This document shows positions 13,449-56,723 of a stretch of 64,000 nt of DNA, piece by piece (the stretch's first letter is position 1; every line of letters starts with the position of its first letter). The stretch comes from Candidatus Dormiibacterota bacterium. GTDB lineage: Bacteria > Chloroflexota > Dormibacteria > Aeolococcales > Aeolococcaceae. The notes beneath the pieces are model-generated. The model had not been told where the DNA came from, made no database searches, and was given only the letters and a program-made list of their open reading frames with translations. Where the stretch lies: NCBI GenBank assembly GCA_963709585.1, contig CAVPXI010000014.1, positions 1 to 64,000 on the forward strand. The letters run 5' to 3'. Both the position numbers and the translations under genes were made by a program.

Positions 13449-13490
13449 ATCAACTTGCGCGTCCGTCGGGGAGACAGGACTTCGAACCTG
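13449..13490 (-). repeat. tRNA-Pro-derived att-like repeat, copy 1 (truncated: left arm plus T-arm/acceptor part only)
   Basis: TCAACTTGCGCGTCCGTCGGGGAGACAGGACTTCGAACCTG matches copies 2-5, then breaks off just before the MMPL terminator. Confidence 0.75.
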
Positions 13491-13496
13491 TTGCCT

Positions 13497-13528
13497 AAAA
13501 GCCCCGTCTCGGTTCTGAGACGGGGCTT
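13497..13528 (-). terminator. intrinsic terminator of the MMPL gene
   Basis: GC-rich stem AAGCCCCGTCTC/GAGACGGGGCTT with a U-tract, 27 nt past the MMPL stop. Confidence 0.85.
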
Positions 13529-13555
13529 TGGGCGAGGTTTGCAGTTGACGGAGTC

Positions 13556-15688
13556 CTAGGCTGCGCGCTCCAGATGTTGCGCCGCAACCATACGGGTAAT
13601 CGGAGTCGCGGGAATGCGCAGGATCCGCGCGAGCCAGACCGGCATCCACCAGTTCCAGCGGCCGAACAGCGCCACCATCGCCGGCACCATGAGAGCCCGC
13701 ACCACGACTGCGTCGACAAGGATGCCCGCGCCCAAGCCGGTGGCGAGGATCTTGATGTCGGTCTCCGGGCCGCTCGACATCGAAAGGAAGGTGAGCATCA
13801 GGATCAAGGCCGCGCTGGTGACTAGCCGTCCAGTGCGCCCGACACCCTCGATCACCGCCGCGCGAGCCGATCCGGTGTTGTCGTACGCCTCGCGGATGCG
13901 GGCGATGATGAACACCTCGTAGTCCATGGAGAGTCCGAACAGGAAGGCGAATACCATCAGCGGCACCCACATGGTGATCGCACCCGATGCGGGAATGCCC
14001 CAAAGCGCTTCGCTGCCGTGGCCCTGCTGCCAGATGAAGGTGAGCGCGCCGTAGGCGGCGGCCAGGGAGACCAGGTTGAACACCACCGCTTTGAGCGCGA
14101 GGACCACAGATCGAAAGGCGCGAGCCAGCAAGAGGAACGTTGCGATGGCGATCAGCGCAAGCATCAGCGGGAAGTTGCCATACACGGCGTTATCGAAATC
14201 GATCAACAGCGCTCCGTCACCGTCGACGCCGACAACCGATGGGTTCGATCCGATCGCCGCGCGGACCGCACGCACTGTGTCCTGACCAGCGCCCAGGCTG
14301 CCTTCAGCCATCGGCAGGACCGTGATCAGTGCACTCCCGGTGCGCTGGGCGTCCCGCGTCGTGACAGCTGTGACGACCCCCGGCACATGCGCAAGCGTTG
14401 ACGTGACGCTCGTCTTCCCGTCGGTGAGCACAACGATTGGCGTGAGCACGCCGCTGGGTACGCCGTCCGACGTCAGCGTGGTCAGCGCGTCACGCGCCGG
14501 GCCCGTCGTCGAGAGCGACGTGCTCGCCGGCTCACCGAGCTGCAGCGACAGGGCCGGAAAAGCGATGAGGCCGAGGATGATGGTGCCCAGGATCGCCGCC
14601 GGCCAGCGGTGTCCGTAGACGCCGCGCGCCCAGGCGGTCCACATCCTGCTCGCGCTGCTCTCCTTGCGGACGCGCGGCCAGTCGAGGCGCGGGCCGACGG
14701 TTGCAAGGAGCACGGGCAAAAGGGTGATTGCGACCGCGACGGACACGAGCGGCACCAGAACGCCGCCGTAGCCGACGCTTTGGAGCATTGGCACAGGAAG
14801 CACGACCAGCGCCAGCAGCCCGACCGCAACCGTGAGTCCGGAGAACACCACGGCGCGTCCGGCGTGCGTCATCGCCGCCTCGACCGCCGCAACGTTGTCA
14901 CGTCCATGGGCACGCTCCTCACGCCAGCGGGTTACCACAAGCAGCGAATAGTCGATGGCGACGCCGAGTCCGATCAGGGCGATCAGGAACTCGACGATCA
15001 TGCTCACGCCCGTGACCGTGGTGAGACCGAGGACGAGCAGGAACGTCGACAGCACCGACGTCGCGCCCATAACCAGCGGCAGGAACGCGAGAAAACTCGC
15101 GAACACGAATGCGAGGATCACCAGCGCGCCGAGCCCACCGACCATTGCCTCGACCATCACGCTGGTGCCACCGCTCTTCGCTGTCACCGGCGCTTGGAGC
15201 AAGGTGATGCTGGTGAAACCGGTGTGCCAGCCGGCGGGCGTCGCAGAACGAACAGCTCTGGCCACGACCGGCTCGATACCGCCCGATCCGTCGTAGCTTG
15301 CCGGCGGCAGGAAGGTGAGCGAGAAGGTCGACCGGCCGTCCCGCGTGATGAAGGCTGCGTCGTGTGTTGACGCGTAATCGACCACATGAACCCCCGCATT
15401 GACGCGTGCGGCATCGAAGATGCGCGCGGTCGCAGCTTTGACACTCGGTGTCGTGATGCGCTCGCCGGGAGGAGCGGTGACCACAGTCACAAGCGGAGCT
15501 TCTGCCGAGCTGCCGTACTCGGACACGATGCGCGCGTCGGTGGTGATCGCCTGCCCGGGCATCGAGAAGCTGTTCGTCATGCAACTCGTCGTGAGCCCGG
15601 CGGTCATCGCGCCGGCGACGGCTGTCGCGAGCCAGAACAGCACGATCAGGGCCCTGTGCCCGAGTGCGAAGCGGGTAATCCGGGTCAT
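13556..15688 (-). CDS. MMPL family (RND-like) transporter
   Basis: GLGVAIDYSLLVVTRWREE and FGLSMDYEVFIIARIRE motifs, 710 aa with two repeats. Confidence 0.93.
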   Translation of the reverse strand: MTRITRFALGHRALIVLFWLATAVAGAMTAGLTTSCMTNSFSMPGQAITTDARIVSEYGSSAEAPLVTVVTAPPGERITTPSVKAATARIFDAARVNAGVHVVDYASTHDAAFITRDGRSTFSLTFLPPASYDGSGGIEPVVARAVRSATPAGWHTGFTSITLLQAPVTAKSGGTSVMVEAMVGGLGALVILAFVFASFLAFLPLVMGATSVLSTFLLVLGLTTVTGVSMIVEFLIALIGLGVAIDYSLLVVTRWREERAHGRDNVAAVEAAMTHAGRAVVFSGLTVAVGLLALVVLPVPMLQSVGYGGVLVPLVSVAVAITLLPVLLATVGPRLDWPRVRKESSASRMWTAWARGVYGHRWPAAILGTIILGLIAFPALSLQLGEPASTSLSTTGPARDALTTLTSDGVPSGVLTPIVVLTDGKTSVTSTLAHVPGVVTAVTTRDAQRTGSALITVLPMAEGSLGAGQDTVRAVRAAIGSNPSVVGVDGDGALLIDFDNAVYGNFPLMLALIAIATFLLLARAFRSVVLALKAVVFNLVSLAAAYGALTFIWQQGHGSEALWGIPASGAITMWVPLMVFAFLFGLSMDYEVFIIARIREAYDNTGSARAAVIEGVGRTGRLVTSAALILMLTFLSMSSGPETDIKILATGLGAGILVDAVVVRALMVPAMVALFGRWNWWMPVWLARILRIPATPITRMVAAQHLERAA

Positions 15689-15818
15689 CTGCCTGCCTCC
15701 TTGGTGACGCCGGTCTCTGAGCAGCCGACGGCCTTAGTCTCGCCAGCGTCAGCGCCCGCGTCGTCACCCGAGCGGAGGCAATTCGTCTACTCCCATCTAC
15801 CGATTTCACGCTGACTAG

Positions 15819-15834
15819 TACTCCCTGGGGAGTA
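15819..15834. promoter_or_regulatory. NarL-type 7-2-7 inverted repeat
   Basis: TACTCCC-TG-GGGAGTA between the divergent MMPL and sensor kinase genes, plus an extra half-site at 15788-15794. Confidence 0.6.
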
Positions 15835-15891
15835 TTCGAAAGCCTCTCGAGGAAGGATGCGCGGCAAGCCCCGGCATCGTACGCTCCATCT

Positions 15892-17130
15892 GTGATCGCA
15901 CTGCTCACCCTTCATCGGCGCCCAGGGAGCCGGTTCGACATCGGAGACTGGGTCCTCGCGCTGGTGATGCTCGCGGTGACCCTGGTCGGCTCCATTGGCG
16001 AGGCGAATGCGCACGTGAACGCGTTGGGTACGACGGTGACCTCAGGCGGGCATCCGGCGGTTCCCAACGCGAGCTGGGCGGCCTTCATCCTCGTGGCCCT
16101 CGCCGCCGTCAGCCTCGCCTGGCGGCGACGGTTTCCGCTCGTCGTCCTGGGCGTATCACTCAGCGCCGTCGCCGCGTATTCGTTGATCGGCTACGTCAAC
16201 GGCACCGCACTCATCGACGTGATGATCGCGCTCTATACGGTCGCGACCATCGTGTCGGCCCGAGCAGGGTTGACGGCTGGACTGGTGACATTGATCTGCC
16301 TTCTCGTGTCCACGGCGGTCCACAATCCATTTGGAACGCTCGGCGGGGGCGTGATTCTCATGCCCGCCGAGGTCGTCGCGGCGGTTTCGATCGGCATCGC
16401 AGTTGGCAACCGCCGCGCCTACCTGCGCGCCGTGGAAGCGCGTGCGGATCAGGCGGAACGCACCCGTGAGGAGGAGGCTGCGCGCCGAGTCGACGCTGAA
16501 CGGTTGCGCATCGCTCGCGAACTGCACGACGCGGTCGCGCACACCCTGTCGATGATCAACGTCCAGGCAGGGGCGGCTGCGCACGTCGCGCGGGATCACC
16601 CCGAGCAGGCCGCGACAGCGCTTGAAGCGATCCGGCTGGCGAGCAAGGAGGGCCTACGCGAGATGCGCTCGATTGTCAACGTGCTCCGTCAATCCGATGA
16701 GGCCGAGGCGACCCAACCGGCGCCGGGCCTGGCGATGCTCCACGACCTCGTGGCCACGACCAACCGCGCGGGGCTGCACACAACACTGCGCATCGACGGG
16801 ACACCAAGGCGGCTTGCAGCCACGGTGGATCTTGCGGCCTATCGGATCATCCAGGAGTCGCTCACCAACACGATCCGTCACGCTGGGCAGGCGAGCGCCA
16901 CAGTGTCCCTCGCATGGGCGGATGACCGCCTCGGATTGGAGATCCGCGACACCGGACGGGGCAGCGCCGCGAACGGGGGCGCGGCCGACGTGTCGGTTCC
17001 CGGCGCGGGCCACGGCATCGTGGGGATGCGCGAGCGCGCCGTCGCGGTCGGCGGAACCTTCGAGGCAGGATCGTCGCCCGGGGGTGGCTTCGCCGTGCAC
17101 GCCGAATTGCCACTCGATGGGGAAGCATGA
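15892..17130 (+). CDS. membrane sensor histidine kinase (HisKA_3 type)
   Basis: ERLRIARELHDAVAH H-box, IIQESLTN N-box and GHGIVGMRER G-box. Confidence 0.93.
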   Translation: MIALLTLHRRPGSRFDIGDWVLALVMLAVTLVGSIGEANAHVNALGTTVTSGGHPAVPNASWAAFILVALAAVSLAWRRRFPLVVLGVSLSAVAAYSLIGYVNGTALIDVMIALYTVATIVSARAGLTAGLVTLICLLVSTAVHNPFGTLGGGVILMPAEVVAAVSIGIAVGNRRAYLRAVEARADQAERTREEEAARRVDAERLRIARELHDAVAHTLSMINVQAGAAAHVARDHPEQAATALEAIRLASKEGLREMRSIVNVLRQSDEAEATQPAPGLAMLHDLVATTNRAGLHTTLRIDGTPRRLAATVDLAAYRIIQESLTNTIRHAGQASATVSLAWADDRLGLEIRDTGRGSAANGGAADVSVPGAGHGIVGMRERAVAVGGTFEAGSSPGGGFAVHAELPLDGEA

Positions 17131-17798
17131 TCCGGGTACTGCTGGCCGACGACCAGGCCCTGGTGCGCGGCGGGTTTCGCATGCTGCTCGACTCGGCGGA
17201 CGACATTGAGGTCGTTGGCGAGGCGTCCGACGGGGCACAGGCGATCAACCTGGTCAAGGACACGCATCCCGATGTGGTGCTGATGGATATCCGGATGCCG
17301 GGGATGGACGGCCTCGAGGCGACGCGACGCATTGCCGCAGACGTCGCGCTTGCATCGGTCCGGGTACTCATCGTCACGACCTTCGAAGCCGACGAGCATG
17401 TATACCAAGCCCTGCGAGCCGGAGCCAGCGGCTTCCTTGTCAAGGACACCGAACCGGCCGAATTGATCGCTGCTGTGCGCGTCATCGCCCGCGGCGATGC
17501 GTTGCTGTCACCGGGTGTGACGCGGCGCCTGATCGCCGATATCGTTTCAAGGCCCACGGCACCGGTGGCGAATCCGGCGAGTCTTGCCGATCTCACCGCC
17601 CGCGAGCGTGAAGTGCTGACGCTGGTCGGTGGCGGTCTCAGCAACGACGAGATCGCTGGCCGGTTATTCCTCAGCCCTCTGACGGCCAAGACGCATGTCA
17701 GCCGGACGATGTCGAAGGTCGGTGCCCGCGATCGCGCTCAGCTGGTCGTTCTTGCGTACGAGAGTGGCCTGGTCGTTCCCGGAACACGAGAACACTGA
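17127..17798 (+). CDS. NarL/LuxR family response regulator
   Basis: LADDQ and LMDIRMPGMDG receiver motifs, and an LTARE...GLSNDEIA HTH. Confidence 0.95.
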   Translation: MIRVLLADDQALVRGGFRMLLDSADDIEVVGEASDGAQAINLVKDTHPDVVLMDIRMPGMDGLEATRRIAADVALASVRVLIVTTFEADEHVYQALRAGASGFLVKDTEPAELIAAVRVIARGDALLSPGVTRRLIADIVSRPTAPVANPASLADLTAREREVLTLVGGGLSNDEIAGRLFLSPLTAKTHVSRTMSKVGARDRAQLVVLAYESGLVVPGTREH

Positions 17799-17911
17799 CC
17801 TCGTCGGTGCGCCTCATCATGATCGAGGATGGCCTCCGGCCACAGACCATCCGGCCGGGCCGCGACAAGCGTCGTCCGAGGGGCGCTGTTCATCGTTCAA
17901 GTGCTGCGCCC

Positions 17912-18120
17912 GGCGCCTAACGCACCGCGCAACCGCTGGCGGCGAACTCACATCGCGCGTCCGTCGGGGAGACAGGACTCGAACCTGCGACCCCTGGTCC
18001 CCCAGACCAGTACTCATTTCCCGATAACTGCTGAGTTCGACTTAGAGTGCTTGTCGGGAAATGGTTGGAATGACGACTAGCGTGCGCGTTATGGACTCGT
18101 TTGGAACTGCATGGACATCC
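17912..18120 (-). repeat. tRNA-Pro(GGG)-derived att-like repeat, copy 2 (core 17962-18010 with both arms)
   Basis: The minus-strand core reads CTGGT-CTGGGGG-ACCAG GGGTC GCAGG-TTCGAGT-CCTGT CTCCCCG A, i.e. anticodon arm, variable loop, T-arm and acceptor 3' strand. No D-arm or 5' strand. Confidence 0.9.
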
Positions 18121-18169
18121 GGTGGAGCGTCAAGGTGTGATCAGCGGCATTTGGTCATCCCGTCCCATC

Positions 18170-18460
18170 GCCTCGAAGCCAGCGACGGAGATGACGCTGA
18201 CGCCGCCATGCATGCTAACTGCTGGGGATCGGCGTCCCCGGTGACAAGAGCATCAGCCGCTCCAAGGACAGCGATGGCAAGAATCTGATCGTCGTCAGGA
18301 TCCCGGCAAATGCGTGGACCTCAACCGGCGTCACCACCTCGGCGATCGCATCGAGTTCGGCTCGCACGGCCGCTGCACGATCGCTCGCCCAGCCACAGGT
18401 CTCGATGAGCACGGCCTCGAGCTCACCGAGGATCGGGGGACCGATGATCAGGGTGTGATC
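18170..18460 (-). pseudogene. PIN-domain toxin relic (5'-truncated, frameshifted)
   Basis: ILGELEAVL... in one frame, followed by DPDDDQILAIAVLGAADALVTGDAD in another, which is the PIN acidic motif. No start codon. Confidence 0.7.
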
Positions 18461-18530
18461 ACCACGCTCTTGGGAGCAGGATCGATAGATAAAAACCAAC
18501 GCGTCAGTTTGACCGTGGTAGCATACCCAC

Positions 18531-19133
18531 ATGCCCCGCATTTCGGAAGGCGCGCGCCTCGAGCGCCGCCAGCTGCTCATGGAGGCCGCTTGGCGTTGTG
18601 CTGGACGCATGGGATACAGCGAGTTAACTGTCGACGACATCTGTGCCGAAGCCGAGGTCAGCAAGGGTGCGTTCTACGGCTACTTTTCGTCCAAGCAGGA
18701 ACTGCTCATCGCACTGCTTGAGGAAGATGCCGCAGACCTCGATGGACTGCTCGATGCCCTCGACCAGCGCCGACTGTCGAATGTTCAGCGGCTCCGCAAT
18801 TTCGCTCGCGAGATGTGCGAGCGTGGCACCGATCAAGCTCGGGTCCAGGTGCGCTCCGATCTGTGGGCCGCCATCCTCACGGAGCCTGCCATCCGTGAAC
18901 GGATGGTGTTGGCGGTTGGGCGACGCCGAGCGGTCCTTCGAGGCTGGATCGAGGTCGCGATCGCCGATGGAGAGCTCGGCGATATTCCCGCCAATGCCTT
19001 CGCCTCGGTCCTACTCGCTCTCGGCGATGGGCTCACGTTGCATGGCTCGCTCGATCCCTCGGGATTCCGCTGGAACAACATCGCTCGGGTTCTTTCCGTC
19101 ATCTTTGCTGGGCTGAGCGGCAACGAAGAGTGA
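18531..19133 (+). CDS. TetR/AcrR family regulator
   Basis: TVDDICAEAEVSKGAFYGYFSSKQEL HTH. Confidence 0.92.
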   Translation: MPRISEGARLERRQLLMEAAWRCAGRMGYSELTVDDICAEAEVSKGAFYGYFSSKQELLIALLEEDAADLDGLLDALDQRRLSNVQRLRNFAREMCERGTDQARVQVRSDLWAAILTEPAIRERMVLAVGRRRAVLRGWIEVAIADGELGDIPANAFASVLLALGDGLTLHGSLDPSGFRWNNIARVLSVIFAGLSGNEE

Positions 19134-20965
19134 GTTCGACCGCGCGCCAACTCCACGTTCCGTCGGATCTCCACCGACGAACCGTCGATTGGGTGCGGGG
19201 CTCCCAGGGAGGGATCATCGCAACCGCCCTGGTCGTGGGTGCCGGGGGCGGGCTCGGGGCAATCGCCTTTCGCGACCTCATCCGCTGGTTCACCATCTTC
19301 TTTACCGGGCACGACGACTACAGCGCCGCCGGACACGCCATCAATCCGAACGTGCCCTGGCTCGGCATCTATTTCGTCATTCTGGCACCCATTCTCGGTG
19401 GCCTCATCTATGGTCCCCTGATCCAGTTCTTCGCCCCTGAGGCTCGTGGCCATGGGGTCCCCGAGGTGATGTTCGCCGTTGCGGAGCGAGGCGGGAAGAT
19501 TCGCCCTCAGGTCGCCGTGGTCAAATCCCTCGCCTCGGCAATCTGCATCGGAGCTGGCGGCTCAGTCGGACGCGAAGGCCCGATCGTGCAGATTGGTTCG
19601 GCGCTTGGCTCCTCGATCGGACAGGCGTTGCACGTGTCTGAGGCGAGGCTCCGCCTTCTCGTCGCATGCGGCACGGCGGCCGGAATTTCGGCCACGTTCA
19701 ACGCCCCCATAGCCGGCGTTTTCTTCGCGCTCGAGCTTATCCTCCAGGACTTCGCCGTCGATGCCTTCGGGGCCGTTGTGCTGGCCTCGGTGGTAGCAGA
19801 TGTCATCGGGCGGGCGGCGTTTGGCAGCCAAGCCTTTCTCACTCTGCCGGCGTTCCATATTGTCTCCACATGGGAGTTCGGCCTCTACGCCGTCCTCGGG
19901 GTGCTGGGCGGCTTTGCGGGACTTGCCTTCATCCGGGTTCTCTACGGGACCGAGGACCTCCTGGATCGCATCTGGCACGGGCCCGAATGGCTTCGCCCGG
20001 TGGCTGGCGGCGTGTTGCTGGGACTCCTGCTGCTGGCACTTCCCGAACTGTATGGCGTCGGGTATCCGGTGCTCCAGAACGCTGTCGGCGGAGAGGTCGT
20101 TCTCGGGCTTCTCCTGCTCTTGCTCGTCGGCAAGATGCTTGCTACCAGCCTAACCATCGGCATCGGCGGATCGGGAGGCGTCTTCGCGCCGTCGCTATTC
20201 ATGGGCGCGATGCTGGGAACCGCCTTCGGCGTGGTCGCCAATATGGTGTTCCACGGTGCCGTGGCACCAGCAGGTGCATACGGTCTGGTGGGCATGGGGG
20301 CGGTCTTCGCCGGTGCGGCTCGGGCACCGATCACGGCCGTGATCATCATCTTTGAACTCACCGGCGACTACACGATCATCCTTCCCTTGATGATCGCGAT
20401 CGTCTCGGCGGCTGGACTCAGCAGCCTCCTCTCCAAGGACACCATCTATACACTCAAGCTGCGCCGGCGTGGGATCGACATTCTCCGATCGCGGAGCGCC
20501 AACCTCATGCATGAGCTTCTAGTCCGCGACGCCATGCAGCCAGCGCCCGAGCCACTTCTGGCTACGATGCCTCTAGATGACATGGTTCGCCGTTTCACGC
20601 GACGTGACGTGTCGGCACTCCCGGTGGTCGATGTCGATGGGTGTTATTGCGGCTTGGTGACTGCAGATGAGGTCGACGCCGCGCTGGCTAGCGACCCCGT
20701 CGGCGTCACAGCCGGCGACATCGCCAACCTGGCAGGAACCGTCGCACCGGACGCACCGCTAGACGCCGTGCTCTCTCGGTTCGTTCAGCAAGGAACGTCG
20801 GCACTGCCGGTCATGGAGCCGGGTGGCTCCAGCCTTGTTGGGTGGCTCACGCATCGCGACATCCTGGTCACCTATCAGACACGTCTCGAGATAAGACCAG
20901 CCGCCCCTCCGTACACGGAGCCGGTGCTAGTGCAACCCAAGACACCCCGACAGGCACGCCTATGA
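19130..20965 (+). CDS. CLC chloride channel/antiporter with C-terminal CBS pair
   Basis: GHGVPE, GREGP and GGVFAP CLC signatures, and CBS motifs ALPVVD/ALPVME. Confidence 0.93.
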   Translation: MSSTARQLHVPSDLHRRTVDWVRGSQGGIIATALVVGAGGGLGAIAFRDLIRWFTIFFTGHDDYSAAGHAINPNVPWLGIYFVILAPILGGLIYGPLIQFFAPEARGHGVPEVMFAVAERGGKIRPQVAVVKSLASAICIGAGGSVGREGPIVQIGSALGSSIGQALHVSEARLRLLVACGTAAGISATFNAPIAGVFFALELILQDFAVDAFGAVVLASVVADVIGRAAFGSQAFLTLPAFHIVSTWEFGLYAVLGVLGGFAGLAFIRVLYGTEDLLDRIWHGPEWLRPVAGGVLLGLLLLALPELYGVGYPVLQNAVGGEVVLGLLLLLLVGKMLATSLTIGIGGSGGVFAPSLFMGAMLGTAFGVVANMVFHGAVAPAGAYGLVGMGAVFAGAARAPITAVIIIFELTGDYTIILPLMIAIVSAAGLSSLLSKDTIYTLKLRRRGIDILRSRSANLMHELLVRDAMQPAPEPLLATMPLDDMVRRFTRRDVSALPVVDVDGCYCGLVTADEVDAALASDPVGVTAGDIANLAGTVAPDAPLDAVLSRFVQQGTSALPVMEPGGSSLVGWLTHRDILVTYQTRLEIRPAAPPYTEPVLVQPKTPRQARL

Positions 20966-21067
20966 TCGCTCGTGATTCCGCATGGTCCTCACGTGTCTTG
21001 CGCTCGCCGCACGCCGTGCCATTGGCAGTGCGACTCATCACGCAGCGGTTCGGTGGTTGGAAGGCTT

Positions 21068-22269: not shown

Positions 22270-22758
22270 TTAGGCGGCGATTGCACGGTCCTTCCGGTCG
22301 TTTTCAACATGGAATCGTGAGGACAACACGCACGTATATATGGCGGCAAAGGCGAGGGCGTTCGCCAGATCCCAACCAATATCTCTTCGGGGCCAATACC
22401 GCAGTCGAGGCGTCGCGCCAATGCGCGGCAGAATCAGCAGTTCGAAGGCCCAGATGACCGATCCGAGCAGACAGGTATCGTGCAATGGGCGCAGCGGGCG
22501 CTCACGGCGCAGTAGTGCCCAGCCGACTCCCCAGGCCGGTCCATAGCCGGCGCGCATCACGTCTCCGACGAGTTGTGCGACGCTGTCATCAAGGGTGTAT
22601 CCGATCTGTCCGGCCATTCTCGCCACCATCGCACTCGGGAGGAAGACCGGTCTCCGCCCGCCTCCGATCTTCATCCCGACTTGCATCAATGCGCTCTCGG
22701 CGACGGTGCCCAGCGCTCCTGCGACTGCGGCGCGCCGCACGCTGGTCTCCGACTTCAA
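22270..22758 (-). CDS. hypothetical membrane protein
   Basis: Several hydrophobic helices. Overlaps the GH15 stop codon, so it is the last gene of the operon. Confidence 0.55.
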   Translation of the reverse strand: MKSETSVRRAAVAGALGTVAESALMQVGMKIGGGRRPVFLPSAMVARMAGQIGYTLDDSVAQLVGDVMRAGYGPAWGVGWALLRRERPLRPLHDTCLLGSVIWAFELLILPRIGATPRLRYWPRRDIGWDLANALAFAAIYTCVLSSRFHVENDRKDRAIAA

Positions 22759-24557: not shown

Positions 24558-24559
24558 CG

Positions 24560-26795: not shown

Positions 26796-26797
26796 CG

Positions 26798-46884: not shown

Positions 46885-46942
46885 AGACCTTATGAGCGGA
46901 GGCCTGCCCCACAGGACTGAACGTCTGTTCTAGAATCTGCAC

Positions 46943-49279: not shown

Positions 49280-49494
49280 TTCAATCAAGACGGTCTGTAT
49301 CGCAGCCAGGCGGCGCCAACTCTCGCCCGCATCGGCTCGGTCGCCAAGGCGATGTGGACAGCGCTCCGTCAGCGACCGCCGATGGCGGCCGGCTGCGCCA
49401 TCTGGAGTGGATGTACAACGACGGCGCCACGTGTTCGCGAGTGAGAGAAAGCGCCCTGGCGCCGCCGCATTGGAGGAAATGGGGCTGATGCTTC

Positions 49495-49701
49495 CTAGCT
49501 GCTGAGACCGTGGCTGATGTTGGAGAACACGTTGTTCACCTGATGGCCGACCGTCGTGAGGATGACGATGACCACGATCGCAATGAGGACGAGGATTAGG
49601 GCGTACTCCACCATCCCCTGTCCACGCTCGTCCGAACCGTCGAGCGCCTCTTCCAGTCGCGTCAACGCGAACTCACGGCAGCGGATGACCGAGGATTGCA
49701 T
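49495..49701 (-). CDS. flp: Flp family type IVb pilin
   Basis: ERG/QGMVEYALILVLIAIVV Flp motif with E+5 and Y+6. Confidence 0.88.
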   Translation of the reverse strand: MQSSVIRCREFALTRLEEALDGSDERGQGMVEYALILVLIAIVVIVILTTVGHQVNNVFSNISHGLSS

Positions 49702-49976
49702 GGCTTCTCCTGAGCACTGATGATTTGAGATCACAATGCAAGACCGACTTGAAAGCCGCTGAAATACTCAGTGACAAGGGCTCGTACCACCAGGCAACCC
49801 CGCGTGACGAGGATGTGACGTCGTGCCCGGGTCCCCTGGGTTCGAACAAGGCTGGGAGCAACCGGGGCAAAAGGCCTCGACGTGCTGGTTAACCCTATGC
49901 GAGAGGTGATGCGTGCACACGGTCTATGCCGTCAGGAGCGCATAGACGAGGAACGCGTAGGCGATGGGCAGGCCAT

Positions 49977-50074
49977 CTGGAGCACCTACATGACGACCTG
50001 TTAGCGCCGTCCACCAGGTTCAACTCCATAAGCACGTACCTGGTCCCTCCGATAGCGCTCAGTCCTTGCGGACG
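49977..50074 (+). repeat. about 98-bp direct repeat, copy B (pairs with 43924-44020)
   Basis: Shares TCCACC.GGTTCAACTCCA.AAGCACG.ACCTGGTCCCTCCGAT and CTCAGTCCTTGCGGACG with copy A. Confidence 0.8.
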
Positions 50075-50337
50075 AGCGGACTGGAGGGAAGCCGGCTATG
50101 TCAAGCATCAGGCGGACGCGCCGCACACCGTCAAGCATCTCTTGGACCTGCGGTGTCAAGTATGTGCCGGACTTCTACACTGCTCTCCGGCAGCCAAAAC
50201 TGTAAGCGCTATGTATGCGCTGGACTGCCACAATCTCTAGGAATGAGCAGCGGTAACCGGCCTCAACTGTGGGGAATGATGCCTTTTGCTGGAAAAGCCA
50301 TCATTCCCGTTTAGAGCACTACACCCCGTGGCGCGTA

Positions 50338-50560
50338 GGCGCCCAACACCCCTCGCAACCGCCTCCACGCGAACTCAACTTGCGCGTCCGTCGGGGAGAC
50401 AGGACTCGAACCTGCGACCCCCTGGTCCCCCAGACCAGTCCTCATTTCCCGATGAATGCTGAGTTCGATTTAGAGTAGTTTTATGCGGAATTGGTCGGAA
50501 TGACGACTAGTCCCTCCGTGTTGGAAAGCGCTGGAATCGACTGCAACTGCATGGAATCCG
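50338..50560 (-). repeat. tRNA-Pro(GGG)-derived att-like repeat, copy 3 (core 50389-50438 with both arms)
   Basis: Core equals copy 2 plus one extra C. Arms GCGAACTCAACTTGCGCGTC and CTCATTTCCCGAT...GAGTTCGA...GGAATGACGACTAG are conserved. Confidence 0.9.
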
Positions 50561-50596
50561 GGCGACCCGGTGCGGGTTGAGGTTCGCAACCAGCGG

Positions 50597-50923
50597 TCAG
50601 GCCCATTCGTGGTCGACGAGATCTCGAAGAGCCGGAAGATCTGTGGCGAGGTACTCCCAGACGCGTTCCATCGCAACACCCATGTAAGCGTGAGCCACCA
50701 CGTTACGAAAGCCGACGATGGCCCGCCATGGAATAGCTGGATGGCGTTCCTTGAGGTCATCGGAGAGCCGGCCGGCGGCATCGGCAAGAACCTCCATCCG
50801 TCGGACTACGGCGTCTTGCAGCAAGTGTTCGGCGAGAAAAGCTTCTCGGCCGCGAGCCGAGTATTGAGCAAGAAGGTCGAGGCACTCAGCGATGAAGCCC
50901 AGCAGCTCATTATCGGTGCTCAC
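50597..50923 (-). CDS. HEPN/HepT-like (DUF86) ribonuclease toxin
   Basis: DAVVRRMEV, IPWRAI and the R-X4-H motif RNVVAH. Confidence 0.88.
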   Translation of the reverse strand: MSTDNELLGFIAECLDLLAQYSARGREAFLAEHLLQDAVVRRMEVLADAAGRLSDDLKERHPAIPWRAIVGFRNVVAHAYMGVAMERVWEYLATDLPALRDLVDHEWA

Positions 50924-51442
50924 AGCACGCGTGCTTCACGCAAGAAGTCGTGTACGAGCCCGGATATCCTGAATGCCCGCCTCATCGATGACATCAACGG
51001 ACCGTCGGACGATGCCGACGCACGCTTCCCTGAATTCATCGAGCGCCGCGAAGTACGCCGCGCCCTTGAGGTCGGGGCGCACGGTGACCATGAGGTCCAC
51101 ATCGCTCTCGGCCCGAGCGGTGCCCCGCGCGACGGAGCCGACGACACGAACCTGCTGAATACCACGCGCTGTAGCGGCGGCACGGATCCTCCCGTTGAGG
51201 CGGCGCAGTTCCTCGGTCGACGGCGGGGTGGCAAGCCCGGGAATGATGGTCGTCGTCAAGGACCTCCCTGTGGCGGTGGCGAAGCGCTCGAGGAAGGACA
51301 GCGTGTGCGAGGGTCCGCTGCCGCTCTCGGCGCGTGCGATCACGGATTGGGTCGTCCCCATGCGTGCTGCGAGAGCAGCCTGGGAGAGCCCGGCGGCGCG
51401 CCGGTTGGCGCGGAGCGCCACGTAAAGCGGGTCATGCGGCAT
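50920..51442 (-). CDS. Xre-HTH fused minimal nucleotidyltransferase (MNT) antitoxin, frameshift near the 3' end
   Basis: GLSQAALAARMGTTQSVIARAE HTH, and GSVARG...SDVD and VDVI MNT motifs. The tail FLREARVL* is in the 50920 frame and overlaps the HEPN start. Confidence 0.82.
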
Positions 51443-51450
51443 GGAGCCAG

Positions 51451-51468
51451 TATCGCATATTTGCGATA
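51451..51468. promoter_or_regulatory. palindromic operator upstream of the HTH-MNT/HEPN operon
   Basis: TATCGCA-TATT-TGCGATA, 8 nt upstream of the start codon. Confidence 0.6.
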
Positions 51469-51698
51469 ATCAGCGCCCGTAGGTTCTGGACTAGAAGCCG
51501 GGGCGAGATACCCAGGTGGCATCGATGTTCCGGCTCGCCCCTGGCGTTCGAAGGGCACGTCGCCACCGAAACCGACCTTTCCGAGGCTTAGTCCCGACCT
51601 GGGCCGTCCCTTTGATCTCCATCGACGGATTCCAATTGTGGGTATGCGGCTCCGTGGCTTACCGGCCGACCCCCCATCCAGGCTGAGAGACTCTGCCG

Positions 51699-52247
51699 AT
51701 GGCCGACGTTCCACCTGGACTCATCTTGCAATGGCTGACCGAACCGAGCATGGTCAACGCGCGTACGCGCCGTCAGCTTCTCAGCTGCTGGCGCGATGTC
51801 GTAAATGCCGGAGGGGCGGTCGGCTTTCCGTTCTTGCCGGTGGAGGACGCGCAAGTCCTGCCGGCAGTCGATGCCATGGTTGACTCGCTCAACCCGCTGG
51901 TCAACCGGCTACTGCTCGCGACCGTGGGCGAATCGTTGGCCGGTTGGCTGCTCTTGGCTGGCAACACGGCGAAGGTCACGGCTCACTGGGCGCGGGTGCT
52001 GAGAGTGCAGACCGCCATCGCTCACCGCGGGACGGGCATCGGCCGGAGCATGATGACTGAAGTGTCTCGCGCCGCTCGAGACGACATGGGCCTCCAGCAG
52101 CTGCATCTGGAGCTGAGAGCGGGCCTCGGATTGGAATCCTTCTACGGCGCCTGCGGCTGGCGGGAGGTCGGCAGATGGCCCGCTGCGCTGCGACTGAGCG
52201 AAGACGACTACCGCGACGAGGTGCTCATGGTTCTGAAGTTACAGTGA
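51699..52247 (+). CDS. GNAT family N-acetyltransferase
   Basis: HRGTGIGRSMM acetyl-CoA motif and FYGACGW. Confidence 0.88.
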   Translation: MADVPPGLILQWLTEPSMVNARTRRQLLSCWRDVVNAGGAVGFPFLPVEDAQVLPAVDAMVDSLNPLVNRLLLATVGESLAGWLLLAGNTAKVTAHWARVLRVQTAIAHRGTGIGRSMMTEVSRAARDDMGLQQLHLELRAGLGLESFYGACGWREVGRWPAALRLSEDDYRDEVLMVLKLQ

Positions 52248-52355
52248 TGGAGCTCGACACTATACGCTGCAGAGTAGTGGCGGCCACCATATAGTGTCGG
52301 CAATGGCAGCAACGTGAGTCGCCAGTCGTCTTACGTTGCAACCATTTGGGCGCCG

Positions 52356-52506
52356 CCGTCGGGGAGACAGGACTCGAACCTGCGACCCCTGGTCCCCCAG
52401 ACTAGTCCTCGTTTCCGAGAGCGTAACCGAGTTCAGAATGTGTGGTTTCGTGGCGGATTGGTGGAATGACGACTAGTGCAGGTGCGATGGAATCGATTGG
52501 AATTCC
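52356..52506 (-). repeat. tRNA-Pro(GGG)-derived att-like repeat, copy 4 (core 52357-52405, right arm present, left arm divergent)
   Basis: CGTCGGGGAGACAGGACTCGAACCTGCGACCCCTGGTCCCCCAGACTAG followed by GAGTTC, GGAATGACGACTAG and phased TGGAAT repeats. Confidence 0.9.
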
Positions 52507-52690
52507 GTCAACACACACGCACACGTACTGCACATTGCTTCCCTCCCCCTCCGCTCTGTACTTTGGGCACTCTGGCGGCCGTCGGGCGCGCCGAGCCTCT
52601 AAAGTCCATGAATCTGGTGACAGGACACTCGTGTGAGCGACGCGGCTGTCCTTCGAGATCTCTCGAGCCGTACCTGCGAATGTAGGTGAA

Positions 52691-53197
52691 CTATGGCGGC
52701 GCCGACCCGCGCTGACGGAAGCGCGCCGGCGGCTCGACGCCGATCGATGGAGGACCTTGCGCTTCTTCGTTCACGCACACATATGCGGTCAGCCACCACT
52801 CCTCTCGCACCTCGTCGATCTCTCCCTCACCAACAACAAAGCAGGTGTTGAGCCACCGATACGACTCCACCTCGGTAGTCAGTTCAATGCGGACTGTGAC
52901 CGCACGCCGACGCCCGCCTGCTTGCTCATCGACGCTCTGGCCATGGATGGAGATGAGAATGTCCTTGCCCTCCCTGGTAGTGAGGAAGCCACGGAGGTTC
53001 GGCGTCCAAACGCCGTCGTCCCGACGCCGAGGATAGTTGGCCCATATCAGCGTTCCTTCGATGTCGCCGGTTACTTCTCCCCCTCCGTGGCCGAAGCCAA
53101 GCGCTTCCTCGCCTCGCTCGGGACTTCCGCCATAGGGCTGGTGCCAGCTGGCGCGGGAGTACTGCATCGTGATCTTGCAGAGCGGTTCGATGCGCAT
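52691..53197 (-). CDS. hypothetical beta-barrel protein (DUF3237-like)
   Basis: GGGEVTG..EG and YRWLNTCFVVGEG pattern. ATG follows GAAGGAGG. Confidence 0.55.
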   Translation of the reverse strand: MRIEPLCKITMQYSRASWHQPYGGSPERGEEALGFGHGGGEVTGDIEGTLIWANYPRRRDDGVWTPNLRGFLTTREGKDILISIHGQSVDEQAGGRRRAVTVRIELTTEVESYRWLNTCFVVGEGEIDEVREEWWLTAYVCVNEEAQGPPSIGVEPPARFRQRGSAPP

Positions 53198-53441
53198 CAA
53201 TGGACCCTCCTTCGTAACCCGTTGATCCTGCGCCTCACGTCCCATTGAAAGCAGCGAGCGAGCCTCGTGAGTGAATAGACATCGAAGTGAAGGCGACGAC
53301 ACCTTGCAACGAGCTTCGCCGCGAGCGGTGATCGCGAATACCACGAGTGCAACTGTCACCCCATCCCGCGTGGCGGATCCGAGCTGTACGCGGGTCGCGG
53401 AATTCGCTGGTAGTTCAGGCGCGGCTCACTTCCCCCGGTCT

Positions 53442-54059
53442 TCAGTCGGCCGAGGCCGTTGCATACGCCGGGCGCCCGCTAGGCCGATAGACCTGGATCA
53501 TTACCCCGCTCGGAGTGGACCGGGAGTCGATCAGCTCGAGCGCCGTGTCCGGGCCCCTGTCGGGGAATAGCCGCGTGCCCTGGCCGAGGATCACGGGGTA
53601 GGTGAGCAGGGTGATCTCGTCGACAAGCTGGTTGTCGAACAGCCAGCGGACGAGGCTACCGCTGCCGTGCACCTGCAGCTCACCCGCGGGCTTGGCTTTC
53701 AGGTCGCCGATGGCTGCCGCGACGTCTCCGGAAAGGACGGTCGTATCCGTCCATTGCGGGTCGGTGAGCGTGGTGGATGCCACGTACTTGGGCTTCGAGT
53801 TCAAGGCCCCCCCGATGGGACTCTGCCGCATCGCCTCAATTGCTCCCCAGGAGCCGGCAAAGGTCTCATAGGTCAACCGCCCGAACAGGAACGCGTCGGC
53901 GCGCTGCATGGACTCGGTGAGGAACGCAGTTGCCTCGTTGTCGAACAGCGGCCCGGCCCACCCGCCGCGCTCGAATCCGCCTCTGCGGTCCTCGTCTGTC
54001 CCGCCGAGCCCCTGCATCACTCCATCGACGGAGATGTGCGTGATGGTCGTCAGTCTCAT
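53442..54059 (-). CDS. dihydrofolate reductase family (RibD C-terminal-like) protein
   Basis: SVDGVMQ, GRLTYE, PKYVAS and VHGSGSL..LVDE..PVILGQG motifs. Confidence 0.88.
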   Translation of the reverse strand: MRLTTITHISVDGVMQGLGGTDEDRRGGFERGGWAGPLFDNEATAFLTESMQRADAFLFGRLTYETFAGSWGAIEAMRQSPIGGALNSKPKYVASTTLTDPQWTDTTVLSGDVAAAIGDLKAKPAGELQVHGSGSLVRWLFDNQLVDEITLLTYPVILGQGTRLFPDRGPDTALELIDSRSTPSGVMIQVYRPSGRPAYATASAD

Positions 54060-54081
54060 GGGTTTCTTCCCCTTTTCCAAC

Positions 54082-54140
54082 TAGTTGAGCTTTCAACTAT
54101 GCGTTGTAGTGACATTACCAGATTTGATTGAAATGTCAAC
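54082..54140. promoter_or_regulatory. MarR-type operators
   Basis: TAGTTGAGCTTTCAACTA palindrome (54082-54099) and a related TTGAAATGTCAA in the divergent intergenic region. Confidence 0.6.
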
Positions 54141-54171
54141 CAACAGGCGGAACTGCTGGTAGGCTGGGGAT

Positions 54172-54687
54172 ATGGCCGGGACCCGGTGGCTGAGCGAGGA
54201 CGAGCAGCGGACCTGGCGGACGTTCGTAATGGCCACCAAGCTGCTGTTCGATCAGCTGGAACAGGAGCTCGACGAGCAGACGGACGTTCCGAGTCACTAC
54301 TACGAGGTCCTGGCCCGCCTCGCGGAGGTCCCCCAGCGACGGCTGCGGATGAGCGACCTGGCCGACCTGTCCCAGTCGTCGCGCAGCCGGCTGTCCCACT
54401 CCATCGCCCGGCTGGAGTCGCTCGGCTGGATCCGGCGCGAGGCCTGTCAGACGGACCGCCGGGGAGCCTTTGCCGTGCTCACCGACGAGGGCTTCTCCGC
54501 CCTCGAGGCTGCCGCCCCGGTGCACGTGGAGGGTGCGCGCAGGCACCTGTTCGACCAACTCGACGTTGAGCAGCTCGAGGAGCTGCGGCGGATCAGCGAG
54601 CGAGTGCTCGAGCACCTGGTGGCCGTCAAAGAATTGTCCCCCGAGGAACTGGGACGGCTCGGCATGCCCCTCCAGCCACGCAGCTAG
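54172..54687 (+). CDS. MarR family transcriptional regulator
   Basis: LRMSDLA...SRSRLSH...TDRRG motifs. Confidence 0.92.
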   Translation: MAGTRWLSEDEQRTWRTFVMATKLLFDQLEQELDEQTDVPSHYYEVLARLAEVPQRRLRMSDLADLSQSSRSRLSHSIARLESLGWIRREACQTDRRGAFAVLTDEGFSALEAAAPVHVEGARRHLFDQLDVEQLEELRRISERVLEHLVAVKELSPEELGRLGMPLQPRS

Positions 54688-54856
54688 CTATCGCCAGCCC
54701 ACGCCGGGATGAACACATCGCCCACAGCAATCGGGTCGAACGCGTGCCACTGAGAGCGCCTTTGGAATAGGCGTCGACGGCACCGATGACTTGTTCCGCC
54801 ATGCGTCGTCTCTACCGGTGATGAGATGGGACGTTACACACGGGGAGGTCAGTTGA

Positions 54857-55456
54857 ATGTCTAGATCTGTGCTCTATATGTCGATGTCACTTGACGGCTT
54901 TATCGCCGGCCCCAACGACCATTCGGGAAACCCCGGAGGCGACGACTTCATGCGTCTGCACCGGTGGTATGGGTTTGCCTCGGACGCTGGGCCGACCGCC
55001 GAGACCGTTGATGGGTCGGGGATTGGCCGGCAATTTCTCGATGAAGGCAACGAGACGGGTGCGGTCCTCGCCGGTCGCAATACCGTGGAGCAGGTCGATC
55101 ACTGGGGCGGCGACCACCACGACGGCGTTCCAATCTTCGTAGCCAGTCACAGGCCGCCGGGATCGTCGGTCGCGAAGTACCCATTGGTGACGTACGTGAC
55201 GGATGGGATCGTCAGCGCGATGTCACAGGCGAAGGCCGCTGCAGGTGCCCGCGACGTGCTGGTCCATGGTGCATACACGGCACAGACGGCACTTGCGGCA
55301 GACGTGCTCGATGAGTTGCAGATTCACCAGGTGCCGGTGCTGTTCGGTAGCGGCCGCCGACTATTCGACGTGTTGCCGACTAGGGTCGAGTTGGAGATCG
55401 TTCGAGTGATCGACACTCCAGAGGCCACGCACATCCGCTACCGCATTGTGAGGTAA
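54857..55456 (+). CDS. dihydrofolate reductase family (RibD C-terminal-like) protein
   Basis: MSMSLDGFIAGPND and LDELQIHQVPVLFGSG motifs. Confidence 0.88.
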   Translation: MSRSVLYMSMSLDGFIAGPNDHSGNPGGDDFMRLHRWYGFASDAGPTAETVDGSGIGRQFLDEGNETGAVLAGRNTVEQVDHWGGDHHDGVPIFVASHRPPGSSVAKYPLVTYVTDGIVSAMSQAKAAAGARDVLVHGAYTAQTALAADVLDELQIHQVPVLFGSGRRLFDVLPTRVELEIVRVIDTPEATHIRYRIVR

Positions 55457-55825
55457 TGCGGCACTTCGGATTGGATGTCGAGGAGAACCTGTGGGCACAG
55501 TAATGATGCCCCAACGTGGTGTCGGTGGACGGCTAATCGCCAACGGGCTGCGCTTGTTGCGACCAGCCTCAACTCGAGATCCGATGGCCCAAAACTTCAA
55601 TGCCGTCCTGGGATGGCACACCGCCTCACGCACACGTACATGAGACGTACAAGCTAGGTGCACAATGCGCGAGCTTTTATCATCCAGGTGACACAGGGCA
55701 AGGTGGAACCGACGATTGACGATCGTCTTCAGGCGCGGCGCTGACACGGCAGAGTATCCCGCGAGCCTCAGTGAGCAAGTGGCGGTCGAGTGTGGAACCG
55801 GGCACGTGATGTCACCCAATAGCTT

Positions 55826-56413
55826 GTGCACCACGGGGAGTTCATGATTCACGATGAGCCCGACACCTACATCCTCTGGCACTGTGCCAGCCTCGCGAGC
55901 AGTGAATACGCGTCCGTGAGCAACCGGGACAATGGTCACCGTCTCCAGGGGTTGACGGTCATGCCACTCGAGTATCGTCCTTGTCACATCGACTACGCAG
56001 TTGCGGTCGACGCAGCCTGGTCGCCGAACTTCGTGACGGCCACCATCACCACACCAACTCAGATTCGAACTCGTCATCTCGAGCGCGATGCAAATGGGCA
56101 CTGGCGACTCGACGGGGAGGCAGCGGCTTACCTCGATGGATGCACCGATGTCGACCTTGGCTGGACGCCATCCACCAACACGGTTCCGATACGCCGCTTG
56201 GACCTTGCAGTAGGAGACACGGAAACTATAAGCGCCGCCTGGATGCGGTTCCCAGAGCTCGATGTCGTCGTGAGTTCACAGCGGTATACACGGCTCGCTG
56301 ATGACTGTTGGCGCTACCAATCGGGGCAATACGACTTCGCCTTGACCACCGACGTTGTGACCGGGCTGGTCTTGGCATACGGCGACGACCTCTGGCGCGC
56401 TGTCGCTCGATGA
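55826..56413 (+). CDS. putative glycolipid-binding domain protein
   Basis: LDGCTDVDLGWTPSTNTVPIRRLDL and QRYTRL motifs. Confidence 0.75.
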   Translation: MHHGEFMIHDEPDTYILWHCASLASSEYASVSNRDNGHRLQGLTVMPLEYRPCHIDYAVAVDAAWSPNFVTATITTPTQIRTRHLERDANGHWRLDGEAAAYLDGCTDVDLGWTPSTNTVPIRRLDLAVGDTETISAAWMRFPELDVVVSSQRYTRLADDCWRYQSGQYDFALTTDVVTGLVLAYGDDLWRAVAR

Positions 56414-56540
56414 AACGCAGCTAGGCACCAGTGACGCCACGGCGCGCTAGGTTCACCGTCCTGCTTCTGGCCGCAGCCTGTCTGATCGCAAGAGAACGCT
56501 AGTCGATTCGCCGACCAAGAGATGCCGGTGGGACCTCGCC

Positions 56541-56723
56541 GCGAACTCGCATTGCGCGTCCGAGTCGGGCAGACAGGACTCGAACCTGCGACCCCTGGTC
56601 CCCCACACCAGTGCTTATTTAGCTCCCACTAATCGAGGTCAGAAATAGTGGTTTCGTCGGAATTTGGTTGGAATGACTACCAGAGCAGGAGTGATGGATT
56701 CCCTTGGAATCGAGTGGACATCC
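56541..56723 (-). repeat. tRNA-Pro(GGG)-derived att-like repeat, copy 5 (core 56564-56611 with both arms)
   Basis: GCGAACTCGCATTGCGCGTCC left arm, a core with two substitutions, then TTGGTTGGAATGACTACCAG and three phased NTGGA repeats. Confidence 0.88.

Follow-up and report, generated by a model that had tools for sequence, protein, structure and literature searches.

The window analysed here is a stretch of 64,000 nucleotides, positions 1-64000 of contig CAVPXI010000014.1 (C14), from a metagenome-assembled genome (MAG; G000; 24 contigs, 3.52 Mb, 88.8% complete) of a Candidatus Dormiibacterota bacterium. Dormibacterota are abundant uncultured bacteria of soil and permafrost. Five copies of the 3' half of a tRNA-Pro(GGG) gene are present in the window and delimit segments of cargo genes (Table 1). 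All five were matched on the plus strand, the tRNA sense being the minus strand, and their flanking sequences are shared; read on the minus strand, each copy begins with the 5' strand of the anticodon stem, includes the anticodon loop and ends with the discriminator base. A preliminary description of the window had reported five such copies in one orientation with shared flanks, which was confirmed, its start positions lying within 2-7 nt of those determined here. A 37-nt core pattern (up to 3 mismatches) gave 3 matches in the window and 0 in 100 shuffled sequences; it skips copy 3, which carries a 1-nt insertion, and the truncated copy 1. The right-arm motif GGAATGACKACYAG occurred 4 times, in copies 2-5 only (0.09 matches expected), and the left-arm motif GCGAACTC..TYGCGCGTCC was present in copies 2, 3 and 5, partial in copy 1 and lacking in copy 4, so that the distribution of the arms was as initially claimed. 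In the following, a tRNA-derived core together with its arms is referred to as a joint.

ARAGORN detected no tRNA within the window; the intact tRNA-Pro(GGG) gene lies at C14 c[71628-71703], 7.6 kb to the right of the window and adjoining der/EngA. The tRNA gene had been predicted to lie right of position 64000, perhaps with an integrase beside it; the former prediction held, while no integrase was found at the tRNA in this assembly. In Rfam searches no family reached its gathering score anywhere in the window, and the tRNA model around joint 3 (50391-50451) remained sub-threshold with 22.2 bits (gathering score 29; E 0.068). The right arm opens with ~20 nt (50444-50465, and the corresponding positions of other joints) that on the minus strand resemble a tRNA 5' half without the D arm, and attP may descend from a whole captured tRNA.

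With an nhmmer profile built from 8 copies, 26 matches were obtained in the whole assembly, all on the plus strand. Seventeen of these are located on contig C13 (212,147 bp), from 11.7 kb to 211.5 kb, the last one being a second intact tRNA-Pro(GGG), and six on C14, where again the last one is the intact tRNA. The remaining three are weak, core-only matches at tRNA-Pro(TGG) on contig C15. No joint copies were found by nhmmer elsewhere in the assembly or on the opposite strand, and none left of 13446 in C14. The array on C13 and C14 therefore comprises 23 joints of uniform orientation that end at intact tRNA-Pro(GGG) genes, in line with the proposal that the copies are att-type joints of tandem units. 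Both array contigs break inside the island; C14 begins at window position 1, and the far end of its array is not assembled. The end of C13 (634 bp: tRNA and start of der) is 86.9% identical to C14:71629-72262. Because of this low identity, C13 probably represents the equivalent island from a sibling population, binned into the MAG. The marker-based contamination estimate of 1.19% is blind to such a sibling contig, as C13 consists almost wholly of island. C15 bears a further, small array: two 3'-half fragments of tRNA-Pro(TGG) (33417-33461 and 35470-35527) lie 5-7 kb downstream of the tRNA at c[40658-40732] in the same orientation; no PF00589 match was found on this contig.

The anatomy of the joints was compared across all 23 joints of the assembly, including the two intact tRNAs. 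A right arm was present in 20 of them and missing at the two intact tRNAs and at the truncated joint 1. Left arms fell into distinct types. Eleven joints, among them joint 3 of the window, carry a type A arm, which can reach 390 bp and contains an imperfect palindrome of 37 nt around TTTTGC(A/T)GGAAAA, and five, including the intact tRNA of C14, carry a type B arm. Joint 1 of the window retains an integrase-proximal remnant, and in the remaining six (including joints 2, 4 and 5 of the window) the left arm is short or lacking. Type B and the remnant at joint 1 are homologous to the arm that lies next to the integrase gene in relatives, while type A shows no homology to this arm beyond ~20 nt and one motif. 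At joint 1 the nhmmer match covers 13446-13490, and 13431-13490 is 95% identical to the arm that lies between core and integrase start codon in the related genome G008. The right-arm extension of joint 2 is 80-82% identical to C13:111201-111708 and C13:134812-135318, and the long right-arm variant of joint 4 recurs at the C13 joints at 112983, 129437 and 145371 and at the integrase-adjoining joint of the closed genome G019. As a separate observation, a 113-bp repeat is found at 2711-2823 and 13497-13609 (87.6% identity), one copy directly following the truncated joint 1, with a terminator-like hairpin AAAAGCCCCGTCTC...GAGACGGGGCTTT.

In 17 of 22 joints the first 44 core nt match the tRNA exactly, whereas the arms are on average only 72% (right), 82% (type A) and 81% (type B) identical in pairwise comparison. 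The anticodon stem forms a dyad (CTGGT, 7-nt loop, ACCAG), and since core differences start in the 5' strand of this stem, the crossover would be expected within the anticodon loop between CTGGT and ACCAG. The joint beside the intact tRNA of C13 consists of left arm, core and tRNA 5' half, and the internal joints of left arm, core and right arm, or of core and right arm; these are the products expected from recombination of attP with attB. Within the right arm a block of ~18 nt (GGTTGGAATGACGACTAG) is at least 95% conserved in the 20 joints. The pattern GGAA[TA]GA[CG][GTC]AC[TC]AG occurred 22 times in the 3.52 Mb assembly, in all cases on the plus strand and within 450 bp of a joint, with 18 occurrences between +101 and +105 and the other 4 between -102 and -76, in type B arms. 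TGGAAT repeats cluster at about +101, +126 and +137. A loose, one-mismatch version of the motif termed M1 gave 1 match in the window with 0.57 expected, which is not above chance, the strict genome-wide counts being the informative ones. Judged from the sequence, arms and core together have an attP-like architecture. A conserved open reading frame (ORF) through the right arm was considered and rejected, as most copies contain stops in all three minus-strand frames; by eye only, a possible 23-codon ORF was noticed in the type A arm.

Recombinase genes were searched in all six frames of the assembly. PF00589 gave 11 matches, most of them adjoining other tRNA genes, and none on C13, on C15 or in C14:1-72,000; PF00239 gave a single match, on contig C4, and none in C13 or C14:1-72,000. 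Pfam searches of 50 + 48 ORFs of the window detected no integrase, transposase, replication or transfer domain, so that the initial statement on the lack of such genes in the segments stands on both kinds of search. Likewise, 122 of the 175 ORFs of C13 contained cargo only and no integration, replication or transfer genes by Pfam, the other 53 (131-193 kb) being covered by the six-frame recombinase searches and tblastn. The ~280 kb of arrays on C13 and C14 are thus devoid of a recognisable recombinase in these searches, with the limit that the MAG is 88.8% complete and its array contigs are broken inside the island. Searching the arrays for integrase remnants by tblastn (E up to 5) yielded chance-level matches only.

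Joints with arms are found throughout the genus. The joint matched 36 of 36 same-genus genomes, in 28 of them with E <=1e-30, which requires arm sequence. Of 24 genomes from the order's other family (a tally that includes the unpublished genomes G039, G048 and G056), 23 were matched at only ~1e-13, corresponding to the tRNA itself. In the closed genome G019 the array has 13 joints over 153 kb, with 12 reverse and 0 forward matches, and in the closed genome G030 it is reduced to the tRNA joint and one fragment.

An integrase acting in trans had been postulated, and a cognate integrase does exist elsewhere in the genus. In G008 the gene of a 345-aa tyrosine recombinase (PF00589, E 4.7e-29) lies beside der, its start 85 nt 3' of tRNA-Pro(GGG). 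With a query of 332 aa, counted from the second in-frame start, orthologues with at least 87% identity were detected in 8 of 42 genus genomes; seven of these, each a different species representative, are 97-100% identical, and that of G019 (87%) is located mid-array beside a joint of core and right arm. With the same query, 10 loci were recovered from a collection of 185,579 species, nine full-length (71-100% identical) and one remnant, all titled Candidatus Dormibacterota or Dormibacteraeota. The best NCBIfam match was XerA (104 bits, cut-off 220), all scores lying far below the curated cut-offs, and the best matches in the PDB were XerC-like, XerA and XerD proteins; by sequence the enzyme is a Xer-like tyrosine recombinase.

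In G008, G005 and G016 the integrase gene is followed by a common 9.2 kb backbone encoding an AAA_30/TraI-like helicase, ParA, RadC, ArdC, SSB and ParB. In G008, 90.5 kb between the tRNA and the next joint are free of joints and additionally harbor a T4SS-DNA_transf coupling protein of the VirD4/TraG type (E 5e-9), an AAA_10/TraG P-loop fragment, a T2SSE ATPase, and type I restriction-modification and GmrSD genes. Neither a relaxase domain nor a full VirB4 was recognised in these 90.5 kb, where many ORFs belong to no family. The gene content indicates that the integrase-bearing element resembles an integrative and conjugative element (ICE); in one relative, the integrase is borne on a small cassette rather than on the ICE-like element. 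When 23 proteins of this element were searched against C13 by tblastn, neither the integrase nor an annotated backbone protein was found, and one weak match (52.4k, E 2e-6) concerned a 76-aa protein without Pfam family. G000 itself contains other ICE-like elements beside tRNA-Gly and tRNA-Leu (C8:85767-91728 and C4:315235-319142), which encode their own integrases. Since their helicase is 62-66% identical to that of the tRNA-Pro element, G000 evidently hosts relatives of the conjugative backbone.

Comparison of arrays revealed that gene content does change at the joints, as had been suggested, for a 12.6 kb unit and for cassette 3 (segment 3 with its joints). C13:186827-198845 and C14:61918-71676 share 89-97% identity. 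The C14 copy of this block lies directly against the tRNA, whereas in C13 a unit of 12.6 kb intervenes between block and tRNA; it contains five large ORFs and no recombinase, with a right arm at one boundary and a type A left arm at the other. A whole unit has therefore been gained at the core. Cassette 3 was found whole and 96% identical in G009, G064 and G032 (3 of 41 other genus genomes) and in parts in 5 more. Homology extends from 50391 to 52406 in G064 and from 50369 to 52503 in G032, that is from core to core with unrelated flanks, and stops at 52406 in G009. The core chromosomal flank of these genomes is only 85%, 84% and 80% identical. Because the cassette is so much more similar than the chromosome around it, it has moved between species recently. 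C13 and G019 further share large blocks in differing order. Overall, 23 of the 110 ends of 29 homology blocks of at least 1 kb lay within 600 bp of a joint, compared with 11.7 +/- 3.2 ends under random placement (maximum 24 in 2000 trials), an enrichment of about 2-fold. At least some units appear to have been gained, lost or exchanged at the cores.

Public reads were also inspected. Twenty soil-type runs were obtained, each with at most 42% of the sampled words, and Logan contigs of four runs compared with 44500-64000 were mostly shorter than 1 kb and represented several related strains. Junctions at the repeats (e.g. 52398 back to 50382, side 36 nt) were inseparable from other repeat copies. 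As the right arm is not cassette-specific, a circle of cassette 3 is indistinguishable from an array joint in such data.

The features of the window are compiled in Table 1. Four segments are bounded by joints on both sides, joint 1 being truncated, and a fifth runs from joint 5 to the tRNA; the sizes originally given for the four (4.5, 32.4, 2.0 and 4.2 kb) were correct. The number of genes per segment, according to Pfam, ranges from 3 to more than 25; they lie on both strands and include TetR, MarR, LuxR and sigma regulators. The HepT-like RNase and the HTH-MNT protein of segment 3 form a toxin-antitoxin-type pair, the main content of the sole small cassette that is common whole between species. 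The idea of self-contained cassettes applied well to this discrete segment and failed for the 32.4 kb segment, which is one composite: its two ends are contiguous as a 5.6 kb module in C13 (C13:95421-101002) and in G019, and are separated in the window by an insertion of 26 kb. At the borders of this insertion neither a joint nor a direct repeat or shared k-mer of at least 12 nt was detected, and no further copy of it was found in the assembly or in the arrays of G019 and G030. In the outer part of the window the blocks 1776-2640, 6035-8122 and 8724-11923 are 79-97% identical to C13 cassettes. The GH15/trehalase-like genes at 22755-24839 and 57603-59524, both on the minus strand, are each broken over two or three overlapping ORFs and represent either pseudogenes or indel errors of the long-read assembly.

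Table 1. Joints, tRNA-Pro(GGG)-derived cores and cargo segments of the window
Feature	Position	Strand	Description
Outer island part	1-13404		Cargo only (Pfam): hydrolase, Crp, ADH, MarR, methyltransferase, FAD monooxygenase, tautomerase, TetR, L-PSP, ECF sigma-SnoaL, MFS, TetR
Joint 1, decayed	13405-13490	-	Left arm of integrase-proximal type (~50 nt), then ~34 nt core; remaining core and right arm gone
Core, copy 1	13457-13490	-	Truncated after ~34 nt
Segment 1 (4.5 kb)	13491-17900		Pfam
MMPL transporter, segment 1	13556-15688	-	Pfam
HisKA_3 histidine kinase, segment 1	15892-17130	+	Pfam
LuxR response regulator, segment 1	17127-17798	+	Pfam
Joint 2	17901-18466	-	Left arm ~60 nt, 52-nt core, right arm and long right-arm extension to 18466
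Core, copy 2	17964-18015	-	52 nt, 0 mismatches to tRNA
Segment 2 (32.4 kb)	18467-50002		Composite; Pfam and comparison with C13 and G019
TetR and CLC channel end of segment 2	18489-20903		Pfam
26 kb insertion inside segment 2	20904-46917		Comparison with C13; enolase-superfamily protein, GMC oxidoreductase, TPP enzyme, ABC-2, Rieske/cytochrome b cluster, cytochrome bd-like protein, Usp proteins, aldose epimerase
TetR, ABC and Flp pilin end of segment 2	46917-49948		Pfam
Joint 3	50003-50539	-	Complete, attP-like; type A left arm 50003-50390, core 50391-50443, right arm 50444-50539
Imperfect palindrome (37 nt), joint 3 left arm	~50272-50308		Around TTTTGCTGGAAA
Core, copy 3	50391-50443	-	One extra C
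GGAATGACGACTAG, joint 3 right arm	50497-50510		
Segment 3 (1.8 kb)	50540-52343		Discrete cassette (Pfam)
HepT-like RNase, segment 3	50597-50923	-	Pfam
HTH and MNT nucleotidyltransferase, segment 3	50936-51442	-	Pfam
GNAT, segment 3	51699-52247	+	Pfam
Joint 4	52344-52640	-	No canonical left arm; long-variant right arm
Core, copy 4	52359-52410	-	2 mismatches
Segment 4 (4.2 kb)	52641-56534		DUF3237-like protein, RibD_C, MarR, RibD_C, glycolipid-binding protein (Pfam)
Joint 5	56535-56713	-	Left arm ~25 nt, divergent right arm (GGAATGACTACCAG)
Core, copy 5	56565-56616	-	4 mismatches
tRNA-proximal segment	56714-64000		Runs on to intact tRNA C14:71628-71703; Usp, split GH15/trehalase-like genes, pyridine-nucleotide disulphide oxidoreductase, glyoxalase, epoxide hydrolase (Pfam)

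The cargo classes of C13, taken together with those of the window, comprise regulators (TetR, MarR, LuxR, Crp, sigma), two-component systems, transporters (MMPL, MFS, ABC, CLC), redox and central-metabolism enzymes, Usp proteins, Rieske/cytochrome b proteins and the HepT/MNT pair. Units of the array measure 2-40 kb and contain multiple genes on both strands. Within C13, cargo is duplicated at 93-98% identity between 12456-14659 and 124226-126430, between 102701-107238 and 180570-185112, and, in inverted orientation, between 120397-122563 and 157568-155402.

From these results we consider it likely that a large flexible island, found across the genus, occupies the tRNA-Pro(GGG)-der locus and has grown by tandem accretion, and that the window covers its outer part. 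The island would grow by repeated site-specific integration into the tRNA 3' half. An incoming circle would carry an attP site composed of left arm, a core of 44-52 nt identical to the tRNA, and right arm; its integration would restore the tRNA, push older units outward and leave arm-core-arm joints between units. The enzyme responsible would be the Xer-like tyrosine recombinase on the ICE-like element aimed at the same tRNA, and the integrase of the relatives would then be expected to act on the joints described here. Nearly all units lack an integrase and yet retain the core and conserved arm motifs, so that they would formally be cis-mobilisable elements (CIMEs). Any two joints would be direct repeats of a complete minimal site, and with an integrase-bearing element present, units could be excised, reinserted or carried along. 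Such units may derive from ICEs or integrative mobilisable elements (IMEs) by loss of the mobility module, which is consistent with the type B arm, joint 1 and the integrase remnant of G019 (see below), whereas the type A arm shows little of the homology in question.

Whether integrase-less units still move is a separate matter, and here we offer a proposal that we hold only tentatively: the units may be propagating, non-autonomous cassettes with standardised ends that are shuffled between species in trans by a rare, ICE-borne Xer-like integrase. The standardised ends would be a perfect tRNA-Pro core, a right arm with the invariant GGTTGGAATGACGACTAG and TGGAAT repeats, and one of the two left arms. 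Several observations weigh against accretion and mobility of this kind. The joint-free 26 kb insertion splits a module within segment 2, a long left arm cannot be recognised in six of the 23 joints, and decay is visible at joints 1 and 5; in addition, the count of 23 joints on C13 and C14 may merge two genomes. The integrase orthologue is missing from the assembly, where the best match is 31% identical and lies beside tRNA-Gly, and with the query used it is missing from 34 of 42 genus genomes. It has no recognised arm-binding domain, and the role of the arms is therefore not evident. Near the outermost joint of the G019 array (C1:2321446-2327579) an N-terminal integrase remnant of 45 residues (70% identical) persists, and integrase-bearing units thus decay in place. 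Cassette 4 occurs only in pieces, with parts in 7 of 41 other genus genomes and the whole in none. Most homology breakpoints lie away from joints, so that other processes shape the array as well, and homologous recombination between the repeats would likewise produce boundaries at cores.

Much of this could also be read as a fossil record, in which serial integrase-bearing elements lost their integrases by deletion, nothing moves site-specifically any longer, and genomes differ today through ordinary indels and through homologous recombination between repeats of ~200 bp. The lack of an integrase in ~280 kb of arrays, the remnant in G019, the two decaying joints, the breakpoints away from joints and the type B arm, which resembles an integrase-proximal arm stripped of its gene, all agree with such a history. 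We nevertheless regard it as unlikely. The 44-nt core has remained identical to the tRNA in 17 of 22 joints while the arms diverged to 72-82% identity, the ~18 nt block of the right arm is conserved, and eleven joints share one defined type A arm, which does not look like random deletion end points. Moreover, cassette 3 is 96% identical across species with a core flank of 80-85% identity, and the integrase, 97-100% identical in seven species, points to recent activity in the genus.

An integron-like platform had also been put forward. In such a platform, a resident integrase at a fixed tRNA site would capture promoterless cassettes whose tRNA-derived site replaces attC. It would account for the numerous units without integrase that line up behind a single site in the same orientation, for a small, core-bounded cassette common to several species, and for an integrase that is Xer-like as integron integrases are, albeit with scores far below curated cut-offs. 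However, no integrase is resident in the assembly or in the 34 genus genomes mentioned above, and where present it is part of the ICE-like element or of a cassette inside the array. The units are large, multi-gene, on both strands and equipped with their own regulators, and the joints are direct repeats of a tRNA half instead of imperfect palindromes of the attC kind, which recombine as folded single strands. Apart from the type A palindrome the arms are non-palindromic, and attC-type hairpins are absent as judged from sequence, without folding. Taken together, this makes an integron-like platform very improbable, and that part of the preliminary description was not upheld. We give next to no credence to its other suggestion, a dispersed tRNA-derived repeat or miniature inverted-repeat transposable element, to a repeat resembling short interspersed nuclear elements, or to an artefact of collapsed repeats in the assembly. 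A conserved unit of ~215 bp with a tRNA-derived centre is indeed present in many copies, but all 26 matches lie on one strand and only at tRNA-Pro loci, the arm motifs occur nowhere else in 3.52 Mb, and the same architecture is found in the closed, single-contig genomes G019 and G030 and, with matches that require the arms, in 28 of 36 genus genomes; the dispersed repeat is thereby refuted.

Tandem accretion as such is not a new phenomenon, and the array is best described as a large, CIME-like example of a known concept, resembling islands of Dehalococcoides and Prochlorococcus. CIMEs and their tandem accretion with ICEs have been described for ICESt1/ICESt3 of Streptococcus thermophilus (reviewed in PMC5704250). 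The likeness lies in att-flanked units without integration or transfer genes, arranged in tandem at the 3' end of the target gene with attP-like joints, and in an ICE with a matching integrase that uses the same site, which here is seen in relatives only. The present array differs in having far more units (23 joints in the assembly, 13 over 153 kb in the closed relative), in lacking the integrase from the whole array and from most genus genomes, and in its recurrent arm types A and B.

The report on ssrA islands of Dehalococcoides describes more than 12 repeats within ~100 kb, and 15 of 31 islands without integration module that were suggested to be CIMEs (PMC3146451). In both systems islands follow one another downstream of a single small-RNA gene, its 3' end recurs as direct repeats, and the sequence adjoining the repeats is conserved. 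The Dehalococcoides islands use a CcrB-like serine recombinase in a six-gene module, a 20-bp tmRNA repeat and IMEs without conjugation genes, whereas the present system has a Xer-like tyrosine recombinase carried by an ICE-like element and a core of 44-52 nt from tRNA-Pro with arms of 100-390 bp, and the assembly has no integration module. The tycheposon-shaped islands of Prochlorococcus (bioRxiv 10.1101/2020.12.28.424599) are likewise tRNA-anchored and built by successive integrations that push older elements inward, with scattered partial tRNAs and degenerate elements, niche-gene cargo and integrase-bearing elements that are rarer and more transient than the islands. Tycheposons are described there as carrying their own integrase and a replication module (primase, helicase or polymerase), none of which is present in the window or C13, whereas the mobile partner here looks conjugative, given the conjugation-type genes in the element of the relatives. 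With mobile and chromosomal integrons the array has in common the single orientation, units without integrase that may occur in more than one species, and a Xer-like recombinase; it differs in having no resident intI, attI or Pc and no attC hairpins, and in that its units are large modules of several genes on both strands, their own regulators included.

What is unusual at this locus is the scale, the lack of an integrase in ~280 kb, the two standardised left arms without integrase, and the association, in an uncultured phylum, with an element that looks conjugative; in the open-access literature searched, no report of such arrays or of Dormibacterota mobile elements was found. A single locus, accounting for up to ~5-6% of a genome of 3.3-3.5 Mb, gathers strain-variable regulators, transporters, redox enzymes, stress proteins and a toxin-antitoxin pair, and it can now be assigned a specific candidate recombinase and a specific site. 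If the units are not moved, the locus would still be a clear and large case of accretion and decay at a tRNA gene. If they are moved in trans, it would offer a tractable natural system for the assembly and exchange of islands, and a simple Xer-like integrase with a 44-nt site would be a possible tool. Should the units indeed be propagating cassettes, the tRNA-Pro locus would be a genus-wide gene-exchange platform of up to ~200 kb, functionally analogous to a chromosomal integron, but with double-stranded tRNA att sites and multi-gene modules.

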